A stretch of DNA of 64,000 nucleotides, from sequence record PP400782. One strand, written 5' to 3'. Within the stretch, counting starts at the first letter, position 1, and each line of letters starts with the position of its first letter. Source of the stretch: Escherichia phage FL31. Shown here piece by piece: positions 3,766-6,759 of the stretch. The notes under the pieces are model-generated. The model saw only the letters and a program-made list of their open reading frames with translations. It searched no databases and was not told where the DNA came from. Both the position numbers and the translations under genes were made by a program.

Positions 3766-4452
3766 TTAGAAGTCGTGAGTAGAATCGGCTTCCATCGCAA
3801 TAACATAACTTACTTGAGAGCTTTCAAACTTAGCTGCAACTTTATCACCAGCTCCCCACAACATTACTTTATAGTTACCTGGCTGGATTTTCATATTAGC
3901 CATATTGATTACGAAGTTAAAGTTATTAGAACCGTCATAATCAGTAAGAGTCAAAGAATACTTAGGACGAGTTAGTCCGGAATCTTCAACTTTATTATAG
4001 CCATTGATAACAATTTTACCATCTTTATTTGTAATAGCAATTGTATCAATCTGAAGTCCACGTGAAACTCGAAGCAATTGTTGAAGGTCTTCAGCTTTAA
4101 TTTCAGTAATCACAGAAGCCACTGGGAATTGAATTGGCTTATTAGGAAAAACAATGGTGCTCTTGTCGGCAGCAGGCCAATAAACTGTGGAACGTGTATC
4201 TGCAATTTTAATATTGCCATCAGTATGCATTGAAATTTCGGCATCATCAGACACTAGACTCAAAATGCTTAAGAAGCTATTCAAATCATAAAGTGCTACG
4301 TCAAAATCAATTTCATCAGAGATATTTGCTTCCGCATAAGTGGTGCCATTAACTGCACGAGTCATAATAAATTTACCTTGGCTCAGCAGAATGCCAGAGT
4401 TAATAGAAGCGAAGTTTTTCAGAATATTTACGGTTTCACGGCTAAGTTTCAT
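3766..4452 (-). CDS. 45: Sliding clamp gp45
   Basis: 228 aa; MKLSRETVNILKNFASINSGI...ADSTHDF matches recalled T4 gp45. Confidence 0.95.
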   Translation of the reverse strand: MKLSRETVNILKNFASINSGILLSQGKFIMTRAVNGTTYAEANISDEIDFDVALYDLNSFLSILSLVSDDAEISMHTDGNIKIADTRSTVYWPAADKSTIVFPNKPIQFPVASVITEIKAEDLQQLLRVSRGLQIDTIAITNKDGKIVINGYNKVEDSGLTRPKYSLTLTDYDGSNNFNFVINMANMKIQPGNYKVMLWGAGDKVAAKFESSQVSYVIAMEADSTHDF

Positions 4453-5339
4453 TTAGGTTTCCTATTAGCATAATAATTTGTCCAAGACCGGATAGCACCT
4501 TGGTATGATTCATCATTAAAACCATGCTGAATTGCATGTTTTCTAAATGTAATATAACTTGGTTTTCCTAAAGCAATCCACAATTCCTTTAATTTTTGTT
4601 CATGAAATATCCATGTACCTCTAGCTTTAGATTTTCTGAATTTATCCTTAAATTCTTTGGTTGCATTTCTTTTCGAAGCTGCGATAGAGGCCTTTGCTCT
4701 ATTTTCAGGTTTAGACCAATACAATGTTTTAGATATTTTTATTTTATCTTTAACATTAGGAGAATTCATTATATCTTTAAATTTTAAAGCAAAATCTCTA
4801 TCGTTAAACATTTTTTTAGAACGAATAGAAACTTTCTCTCTTCGTTCTTTGGTCCAATATGTTTTTTGAAATTCTCTAATTGCGTTTAAATGATTCTCCG
4901 ACAATTTGCAATTTTTTCTAACACCGACGTAATCTTCGTTTATTTCGTTTTTAGAAAGTTTTACTATTTTGCCTGTTTTTAAATTTTTATACGGTGCATA
5001 TCCTTTAGCTGATATTCTAGACTTCTCGTTAGCATAAGCCTTATTAAAATATTTTTCATTTGAAACGGCTTTAACATTGAGTTGGAATAGTCTTTCTATT
5101 CTTCTAGGGTCTAATGTGGTTTCGCCTAAAATTTTTACAGAATATTCGCCTTGGTCTATTAATCTGTTATATAAAGGAGAATACGAGGAATTAACACTAC
5201 CGGTATATATTTTACCGGTAGAATCTTCAATAATATCCTTTCCATTAAAATGACACGAAACTTTAGAACCTATATAATAACACGGGTATTCATTTTTAAT
5301 CTCACGATTATAAAAGGTTATAAGATATATTAAATTCAT
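4449..5339 (-). CDS. Putative free-standing GIY-YIG-type homing endonuclease (seg-like) with lysine-rich NUMOD-like C-terminal region
   Basis: N-terminus NLIYLITFYN...YYIGSKVS resembles the GIY...YIG module (spacing longer than canonical); C-terminal SKPENRAKASIAASKRNATKEF repeats; AT-rich relative to flanking genes; ATG at 5339 (track start 5348 is TTG). Confidence 0.45.
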   Translation of the reverse strand: MNLIYLITFYNREIKNEYPCYYIGSKVSCHFNGKDIIEDSTGKIYTGSVNSSYSPLYNRLIDQGEYSVKILGETTLDPRRIERLFQLNVKAVSNEKYFNKAYANEKSRISAKGYAPYKNLKTGKIVKLSKNEINEDYVGVRKNCKLSENHLNAIREFQKTYWTKERREKVSIRSKKMFNDRDFALKFKDIMNSPNVKDKIKISKTLYWSKPENRAKASIAASKRNATKEFKDKFRKSKARGTWIFHEQKLKELWIALGKPSYITFRKHAIQHGFNDESYQGAIRSWTNYYANRKPK

Positions 5340-5344
5340 AATTA

Positions 5345-5761
5345 TCAAGCAGCAACCATCTGCTTTTTAATAGCTTCAGGCAGTGATTCAATATATTCTG
5401 GAATTTTAGAAGCAACAATTTCGCCAGCTGCAATTAGTTGTTCGTCGGCATCAACGCAGTAGAAATCTTCCAGACGTTCAGAACCGTCTTTATCAAGAAC
5501 GATTTTAGCACCTGCTTCGATAGAATCTTTATAGTGCTTACGCATCAAATGAATCCACATATCAGACACATCGTTATCAATAAAGCCATAAATCATGAAA
5601 CGAGTTTCTTGTGGAAGAGATTGAAGCTTTTTAGCACTTGCGTCATCACAATGCAGGACCCATGCTTTACGAACACGATTATGGTTATGTGGGTTAGCGT
5701 CAGTACGGATAGAAGTAACTTTCAGATCAGCAGCAGTGAAACCTTTAGCAGTAGTAAACAT
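5345..5761 (-). CDS. Hypothetical early protein at the position of T4 rpbA
   Basis: 138 aa ORF between gene 45 region and 45.2-like ORF; assignment by synteny only. Confidence 0.45.
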   Translation of the reverse strand: MFTTAKGFTAADLKVTSIRTDANPHNHNRVRKAWVLHCDDASAKKLQSLPQETRFMIYGFIDNDVSDMWIHLMRKHYKDSIEAGAKIVLDKDGSERLEDFYCVDADEQLIAAGEIVASKIPEYIESLPEAIKKQMVAA

Positions 5762-5989: not shown

Positions 5990-5997
5990 TATAAATA
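5990..5997 (+). promoter_or_regulatory. T4 late-promoter-like TATAAATA box upstream of the HNH endonuclease gene
   Basis: Exact TATAAATA on the plus strand 46 nt upstream of the ATG at 6043. Confidence 0.5.
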
Positions 5998-6042: not shown

Positions 6043-6759
6043 ATGAATTATAACTCAATATACGAAAAGCTTATTACCAATGCTAAATCAAGAAGTTTAG
6101 ATGGTTATACAGAACGTCATCACATTATACCACAATGTTTAGGTGGAAGTGATGATGCTTTAAACTTAGTAGATTTAACACCAGAAGAACATTATTTGGC
6201 ACATCAACTGCTAGTAAAAATCCATCCAGATAATGCCTCTTTAATATATGCTGCTCGTATGATGACTATCTCATCTCCTAAAGCAGATAGAAGCAAAAAC
6301 AAATTATTTGGATGGCTTCGACGTAAGAATCAAGAAGTTCAAAAGAACAAAGAATTCACTGCTGAAACTCGTAAGAAAATGTCCGAGTCGGCAAAAAATA
6401 AACCAAAGATTACATGTCCACACTGCGGTTTAACCGGCACTGAAGGAAACATGAGACGTTGGCATTTTGATAACTGTAAACAAGGCCCTACGCCTAAAAT
6501 AGTAAAACTTGATCAAGAAACAAAGGATAAAATAATTAAAACCATGGCCACGAAAATTTGGAAAGAAGATTCTTGCCCGTTTTGTGGCTTAACTACTAAG
6601 TTATCGGCGTTAAAGCCGCATATAAAATTCTGTAAATCAAATCCTAACAGAAAGAAAAAAGAGGACAAGAAAATTAAATGTCCTCATTGCGATAAAATAG
6701 GGATCCCTGCTAATATGCATCGTTGGCATTTTGATAACTGTAAACATAAGCCTCATTAA
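6043..6759 (+). CDS. HNH homing endonuclease with NUMOD-like motif and three C-terminal CxxC zinc-ribbon repeats; only plus-strand gene in the early region
   Basis: ERHHIIPQCLGGSDDALNLVDLTPEEHYLAH (HNH core); EFTAETRKKMSESAKNK (NUMOD3-like); repeats CPHCGLTGTEGNMRRWHFDNCK / CPFCGL...KFCK / CPHCDKIGIPANMHRWHFDNCK; AGGA RBS before ATG. Confidence 0.8.
   Translation: MNYNSIYEKLITNAKSRSLDGYTERHHIIPQCLGGSDDALNLVDLTPEEHYLAHQLLVKIHPDNASLIYAARMMTISSPKADRSKNKLFGWLRRKNQEVQKNKEFTAETRKKMSESAKNKPKITCPHCGLTGTEGNMRRWHFDNCKQGPTPKIVKLDQETKDKIIKTMATKIWKEDSCPFCGLTTKLSALKPHIKFCKSNPNRKKKEDKKIKCPHCDKIGIPANMHRWHFDNCKHKPH

Follow-up and report, generated by a model that had tools for sequence, protein, structure and literature searches.

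A probable SegG-like GIY-YIG homing endonuclease gene in place of the rpbA-45 spacer of Escherichia phage FL31

Among the described homing endonucleases of phage T4, SegG (gp32.1) is the closest to the gene considered here. It is an experimentally characterised, active free-standing GIY-YIG homing endonuclease targeting gene 32, and promoters of gene 32 are located inside segG (PMC2988022). The segG gene lies at the 59/32 site, and SegA, a second enzyme used for comparison, is encoded between uvsX and beta-gt. A third, I-TevI (PDB 1LN0), belongs to the td intron of T4. Here we describe an open reading frame (ORF) between rpbA and gene 45 in a stretch of 64,000 nucleotides (nt) from Escherichia phage FL31 (PP400782), referred to below as the window. 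We propose that this ORF is very likely a free-standing SegG-like GIY-YIG homing endonuclease gene, carried on a mobile cassette of about 0.92 kb (4427-5348) that replaces the rpbA-45 spacer. Similar to segG, it stands free, is co-oriented with its neighbours and lies directly upstream of an essential replication gene.

The source phage is T4-like and belongs to the genus Mosigvirus, with vB_EcoM_G2285, JM17 and AV116 as the nearest records (98-99% identity). The minus strand carries, in this order, 46, 45.2, rpbA, the endonuclease ORF, 45, 44, 62 and regA, where rpbA occupies 5345-5761 (Pfam Phage_RpbA, expectation value (E) 5e-48) and gene 45 occupies 3766-4452 (gp45 clamp domains, E 1e-44). 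A preliminary description, made from the sequence alone, had placed an AT-rich ORF of 297 codons between these two genes. Its position and composition hold, with a GC content of 0.28-0.30 over 4500-5250 inside the ORF versus 0.34-0.40 in the flanks, whereas the 891 nt comprise 296 codons plus a stop codon. Gene 45 is, as stated there, the neighbour of rpbA in T4, where the site is empty and the two genes are separated by a spacer of only 55 nt; the spacer is 42 nt in Mosigvirus NRG-P0074, which also has an empty site. The overlap of the ORF stop with the gene 45 start is found as described, in the form ATGA, and the ribosome-binding site of gene 45, AGGAAA, falls within the last codons of the ORF. 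The claimed overlap at the other end is not present, as the letters from rpbA to the ORF read TGA-TAATT-ATG and the ATG at 5339 leaves a 5-nt gap after the rpbA stop. An alternative in-frame TTG at 5348 is the sole start candidate overlapping that stop. The ATG is preferred because the consensus N-terminus of the homologous family reads MHIVYK. No Shine-Dalgarno sequence precedes it. A second copy of the gene was searched for within the window and not found.

The assignment is carried by the N-terminal domain. The LIY...YYIGS arrangement reported earlier reads MNLIYLITF...YPCYYIGSK in the translation (L3-I4-Y5 and Y21-Y22-I23-G24-S25), and the key residues of the domain are I4-Y5, R12, Y22-I23-G24-S25-K26, Y45-x-G-S48, E82 and F98-N99. 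PHROG 7504, 'homing endonuclease', matches residues 1-137 (E 2.6e-16) and is the only match in the curated libraries. Similarity to T4 SegG spans residues 1-136, with 38% identity over 138 residues (tblastn of phage genomes, E 4e-10; BLASTP, E 8e-16), and the two proteins have in common the motifs VY...R...P-YYIGSK-N...Y-x-x-S...E...YFN. A word-indexed homologue search gave 5 proteins only; the family became visible through an exhaustive profile search of a representative library (clusters at 50% identity), which yielded 246 related cluster representatives. Conservation was calculated from an alignment of 126 of these 246 relatives. Residues Y5, Y22, G24, Y45, S48 and N99 are invariant, and V/I4, P19, I23, K26, E82 and F98 are conserved in at least 90% of the relatives, with K26 and E82 each found in 125 of the 126. 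The Tyr-to-Tyr spacing between the GIY and YIG elements is 17 residues (Y5-Y22) versus 11 in SegA-type proteins (Y13-Y24) and about 10-11 in the canonical arrangement, confirming the earlier remark that the spacing is unusually long. This is a trait of the whole clade and is common to SegG, which is active.

Comparison with SegA-type proteins (PF01541, PF19835, NUMOD3) links the family to the GIY-YIG nucleases. A SegA-type profile was built from the N-terminal domains of 44 SegA relatives positive for Pfam GIY-YIG, and the N-domain profile of the family aligned to it over 83 columns by hhalign (probability 96.8%, E 2.6e-10), pairing GIY with GIY, YIG with YIG, Y-x-G-S with Y-M-G-S, Glu with Glu and Asn with Asn. 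Thus Y5 aligns with the 'IY' of the SegA-type proteins, E82 (compare I-TevI E75) with their invariant Glu and N99 (compare I-TevI N90) with their invariant Y-N. In addition, 7 of the 126 relatives weakly match SegE_GIY-YIG PF19835 (best E 3.3e-4). Alignment of the family against single sequences was less informative, hhalign recovering the NUMOD3 segment only for I-TevI, the Glu/Asn half only for SegA and nothing for SegF. An AlphaFold2 model computed from the alignment has a mean predicted local distance difference test score of 88.6 and shows the GIY-YIG alpha/beta fold in the N-terminal domain, with extra beta strands forming a hairpin between the YIG strand and helix alpha1. Against viral models, Foldseek gave 42 matches at E<=0.001, many of them named SegG, GIY-YIG, NUMOD or intron endonuclease. 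The tentative GIY-YIG/seg assignment of the preliminary description is thus borne out by the SegG similarity and by the profile match, and a chance ORF is ruled out by the homology together with the high-confidence predicted fold.

The C-terminal half is built of further modules. The linker follows a family motif, Y-x-T/P-Y-K-x-x-x-T-G-K-x-V-K/R-L ... Y-V-G-V. A long Lys-rich C-terminal region had been noted, and residues 140-296 indeed contain 17% Lys with an isoelectric point of 10.4. NUMOD-like repeats had also been claimed for this region; the protein itself gives no match to Pfam NUMOD3, its repeats being too degenerate, but Pfam NUMOD3 is found in the homologous region of 90 of the 126 relatives. 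Degenerate NUMOD3-type repeats are recognisable in residues 146-237, for example LSENHLNAIREFQK, WTKERREKVSIRSKK and WSKPENRAKASIAASKR, and the family profile aligns to the NUMOD3 segment 168-202 of I-TevI. This helical region is presumed to bind DNA. The three tail helices span residues 238-256, 262-271 and 277-291 in the model. Residues 248-279 are 44% identical to residues 176-207 of SegA (BLASTP E 1e-5; hhalign E 1.7e-4), with the motif W...GKP...K.AI..GF...SY common to both over these 32 residues, and the tail is presumed to be a sequence-reading DNA-binding module. The protein is therefore a modular Seg enzyme whose catalytic head is SegG-like and is followed by NUMOD3-type helices and a tail resembling that of SegA.

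This architecture sets the protein apart from each of its described relatives. SegG has 210 amino acids (aa) against 296 here and occupies another site, and the C-terminal halves of the two are unrelated by BLAST, that of SegG lacking a counterpart to the NUMOD3-type helices and SegA-like tail. Because the site differs and only the N-domain is similar, we regard the gene as a paralogue within a SegG-like clade and not as the orthologue of SegG (gene 32.1). SegA-type proteins also have a NUMOD3-type middle region, whereas they differ in the Tyr-to-Tyr spacing and in being matched directly by Pfam models. I-TevI has the same succession of catalytic domain, linker, NUMOD3 and C-terminal helical DNA-binding module, but its identity to the present protein is only 19%, its linker carries a zinc finger that is missing here, it lacks the extra beta hairpin, the equivalent of its R27 is not conserved in the SegG-like clade, and the present gene is not intron-encoded.

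The distribution of the ORF is that of a mobile element. Only 9 of the 563 phage records matching the region carry it, and about 150 Mosigvirus records are without it though their flanks match at 95-99% identity; the flanks of mogra (98.7%), which has an empty site, are as near as those of the carriers. Homology between the window and empty-site genomes ends exactly at the rpbA stop codon on one side and inside gene 45 on the other. Since only 9 of about 160 close Mosigvirus genomes carry the ORF and about 150 near-identical ones lack it, it is not a core gene but a mobile insert of ordinary kind, present in few close relatives. Versions of the gene are found at the same junction in Gaprivervirus VR26 (63% identity, 'putative DNA endonuclease'), in Tequatrovirus SHBML-50-1 (60%, 'homing endonuclease') and in a metagenomic T4-like contig (49%), so that the rpbA/45 site is occupied in four T4-like lineages. 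About 28 records of Tequatrovirus and related phages have a version there, some annotated as 'homing endonuclease', and Salmonella phage F13076 and PaulHMueller also carry orthologues. These orthologues are 292-296 aa long, are 49-63% identical over the full length, overlap the start of gene 45 and are followed by similarly rewritten N-terminal codons of gene 45. They differ from the FL31 gene in belonging to other genera and in a start codon that overlaps the rpbA stop. A literature search on rpbA together with homing endonucleases gave nothing relevant, and the rpbA/45 site is undescribed in the literature searched. The gene is thus an uncharacterised member of the SegG-like group; the label 'homing endonuclease' is already in use for it in PHROGs and in several GenBank records.

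More distant relatives are found at other sites, at 59/32 (SegG), beside gene 49 and beside uvsX. One of them, a 445-aa protein with 29% identity, occurs in metagenomic T4-like contigs (L011 2028-4867; L012, L013), where its neighbours are a 309-aa ORF and a 180-aa ORF, the latter with the UvsX C-terminal domain only. This arrangement suggests that a homing endonuclease insertion has split uvsX, or that uvsX has become fused around it.

The insertion in FL31 is accompanied by a variant patch at the start of gene 45 (Table 1). Within it 13 of 18 nt differ from empty-site Mosigvirus, these 13 mismatches falling in nt 9-26 of gene 45 versus 4 in nt 28-90, and for about 2.2 kb in both directions no other dense cluster of mismatches occurs. 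All 9 carrier genomes have the patch at 100% identity, and no other genome does. Full-length alignments to the empty-site allele are found in 1025 records, and the first 22 nt of gene 45 are identical in T4 and empty-site Mosigvirus. The gp45 N-termini of the carrier lineages read MKLSRETVNI, MKFSRETLNI and MKFSRDTIAV, with S-R-E/D in common, and that of the empty-site phages reads MKLSKDT.... As the carrier patches are alike across lineages, it is suggested that the patch travels with the gene, and this sequence comparison suggests that it is part of the mobile cassette. Of the candidates for the recognition site and for the basis of self-immunity, the strongest is the rewritten start of gene 45 taken together with the lost spacer.

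Based on these comparisons, we propose a homing cycle for the cassette. In a mixed infection with a relative lacking the gene, the C-terminal modules would bind the empty rpbA/45 allele, most likely at the conserved start of gene 45, ATGAAACTGTCTAAAGATACTA, and the GIY-YIG domain would then make a double-strand break. By analogy with SegG, SegF and SegE, the recombination-dependent repair of T4, with the carrier as template, would copy in the endonuclease gene together with markers flanking it (PMC2988022). The gene would thereby spread and the local markers of the competitor would be excluded, an effect demonstrated for SegG at gene 32. The carrier itself would be protected by the loss of the spacer and by the altered start of gene 45. 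The absence of a Shine-Dalgarno sequence means that expression would need read-through from upstream and reinitiation after rpbA, and the level of the endonuclease is probably low. Gene 45 now draws on the insert for its ribosome-binding site and perhaps for two middle promoters, which would discourage a clean deletion of the insert.

Table 1. Features of the endonuclease locus in the window
Feature	Position	Strand	Basis
Endonuclease ORF, 296 aa + TGA stop	4449..5339	-	ORF listing; PHROG 7504; T4 SegG similarity; 246 relatives
N-terminal GIY-YIG catalytic domain, residues 1-~110	5010..5339	-	
Linker, three short beta strands, residues 111-145	4905..5009	-	Model secondary structure; conserved columns 112-143
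Lys/Arg-rich helical region, residues 146-237	4629..4904	-	All-helical in model; NUMOD3 in relatives
C-terminal three-helix tail, residues 238-296	4452..4628	-	Resembles T4 SegA C-terminus
Left junction: rpbA TGA 5345-5347, 5-nt spacer, endonuclease ATG 5337-5339	5337..5348	-	Sequence and alignment
ATGA, endonuclease stop overlapping gene 45 start	4449..4452	-	Sequence
Variant patch, gene 45 codons 3-9	4427..4444	-	Junction comparison
Candidate MotA-dependent middle promoter, TGCTTTA, 12 nt, TATAAT	4768..4791	-	Pattern scan
Candidate MotA-type middle promoter, TGCTTTA, 12 nt, TATATT	4551..4575	-	Pattern scan
A7 run in endonuclease ORF	4811..4817	-	Pairwise alignment with G2285

The expression signals of gene 45 were examined by a scan for the MotA-box pattern TGCTT[TC]A, 11-13 nt, TAnnnT, which occurs 12 times in the window versus 1.9 expected; 9 of these sites are on the minus strand, which bears the genes examined here, and 3 are on the plus strand. 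In T4 the rpbA-45 spacer holds a MotA-box middle promoter (TGCTTTA, 12 nt, TATAAA), and the insert has displaced this spacer. The two MotA-type motifs inside the endonuclease ORF are the same in the VR26 homologue, and they may now serve gene 45, in the way that promoters inside segG serve gene 32. As in segG, expression signals of the downstream gene lie within the endonuclease gene. No T4 late promoter TATAAATA was found inside the ORF, and a generic scan for sigma-70 promoters and terminators gave nothing above shuffle expectation. Other MotA-box sites on the minus strand include 5988, just upstream of gene 45.2, 9987, upstream of gene 47, as well as 7294 and 16507, and the pattern could help to map middle promoters in this phage.

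Several results weigh against the identification as an active, self-spreading homing endonuclease. The protein has no match in Pfam (E<=1) or NCBIfam, including the GIY-YIG models PF01541 and PF19835. SegG is likewise unmatched in both, therefore the miss is a property of the clade rather than counter-evidence. Sequence searches of the PDB, whether with the protein alone or with a profile of 5 sequences, returned chance matches only (E>0.07), and Foldseek against the PDB ranked I-TevI (1ln0) at the top but weakly (E 0.67, template modelling score 0.58 normalised to the target). Among the catalytic Arg, Glu and Asn residues that the preliminary description proposed to check, the Glu and Asn are conserved, whereas the clade does not conserve the canonical Arg of helix alpha1: I-TevI R27 aligns with R59 in the FL31 protein, but most members have another residue in this column (E43, D18, N16 and K15). 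This Arg is found in only 13 of the 44 Pfam-positive SegA-type proteins, and conserved basic residues are present elsewhere, K26 (125/126) and R12 (102/114), either of which might substitute for it. The internal MotA motifs, although common to VR26, are not conserved in the Tequatrovirus version of SHBML-50-1. Finally, those free-standing T4 endonucleases that have been characterised often cleave hundreds of bp away from where their genes are inserted (PMC2988022), so the patch may be no more than co-converted donor DNA.

The inserted beta hairpin, the 17-residue spacing and the lack of a conserved helix-alpha1 Arg hint that the SegG-like clade may be a distinct GIY-YIG subfamily, and the FL31 member may, against the habit of the characterised enzymes, cut within about 30 bp of its insertion point, in the first ten codons of gene 45, with the patch conferring immunity. 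We hold this combined proposal only tentatively. It predicts that the first 30 nt of gene 45 are the target and that the 18-nt patch confers immunity.

The state of the gene bears on whether it is still functional. The copy in the window is intact over 296 codons and keeps every invariant residue of the family; the near-invariant residues are kept as well, with one exception: position 127 is Lys, as in 11 of the 126 relatives, whereas 114 have Arg. In G2285, an A6 replaces the A7 run (locus L001, about 2585-2612) and splits its copy into two annotated coding sequences (MK327933), and JM17, FL18, AV111 and AV115 give two-piece matches to the ORF. The frameshift of 5 of the 9 near-identical copies, in phages that are viable, argues that selection for an intact gene is weak. 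The ORF could then be a decaying or inactive homing endonuclease remnant, retained because gene 45 now obtains from it a ribosome-binding site and possibly promoters. The ATG without a Shine-Dalgarno sequence and NUMOD3 repeats more degenerate than those of most relatives agree with such a remnant, as does the presence of the gene 45 ribosome-binding site and MotA-like motifs within the ORF. We consider it unlikely, however, as the window copy retains Y5, Y22, G24, K26, Y45, S48, E82 and N99 in an uninterrupted frame, and three other lineages have intact versions, 49-63% identical, at this site, a persistence that implies purifying selection or continued mobility. Moreover, the G2285 frameshift could be real decay or an artefact of homopolymer sequencing or slippage. 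Far less probable still is that the ORF is a conserved accessory gene with a part in replication or transcription, its product regulating gene 45 by binding DNA, for instance, or acting as a partner of RpbA. The position in the replication-gene cluster, the translational link to gene 45 and the basic, helical C-terminal half would suit such a role, but T4 and about 150 near-identical Mosigvirus genomes lack the gene, it has the GIY-YIG fold with catalytic residues, its AT content is unlike that of its neighbours, and family members lie at unrelated sites (32/59, next to gene 49, uvsX). The sporadic distribution contradicts a conserved replication gene, and likewise the possibility, raised in the preliminary description, of a conserved structural gene; the comparison of junctions proposed there points to an insert.

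With a SegG-like homing endonuclease gene as the preferred identity, rpbA/45, beside the sliding-clamp gene, joins the list of Seg-type nuclease sites in T4-like genomes. For Mosigvirus phages used for therapy or typing, the locus points to the surroundings of genes 45, 44 and 62 as a local hotspot for marker exclusion and gene conversion. Since curated GIY-YIG models miss the whole SegG-like clade, its members are often annotated as 'hypothetical protein'. No general concept is altered by these findings.

The coding region of the ORF contains a hairpin, CUACCGGUAAAAUAUAUACCGGUAG, with 9 perfect base pairs in its stem and a loop of 7 nt, at 5197-5221 on the minus strand; it lies in codons S40-S48 and spans the invariant Y45-x-G-S48. 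Its folding energy is -14.9 kcal/mol in a 51-nt context (z -3.9 versus shuffles), and it could be a regulatory or processing element, or chance.

A further homing endonuclease gene, of HNH type, lies at 6043-6759 on the plus strand between 45.2 and 46 (PHROG 655, E 7e-67). It encodes CxxC...RWHxxNCK zinc-finger repeats and has a perfect T4 late-promoter box, TATAAATA, upstream at 5990-5997 (+). The gene varies among relatives: G2285 and NRG-P0074 have it, whereas the alignments of JM17, the AV1xx phages and mogra extend no further than 5960, so that these phages probably lack it. Its zinc-finger module is also found at the C-terminus of many members of the SegG-like family.

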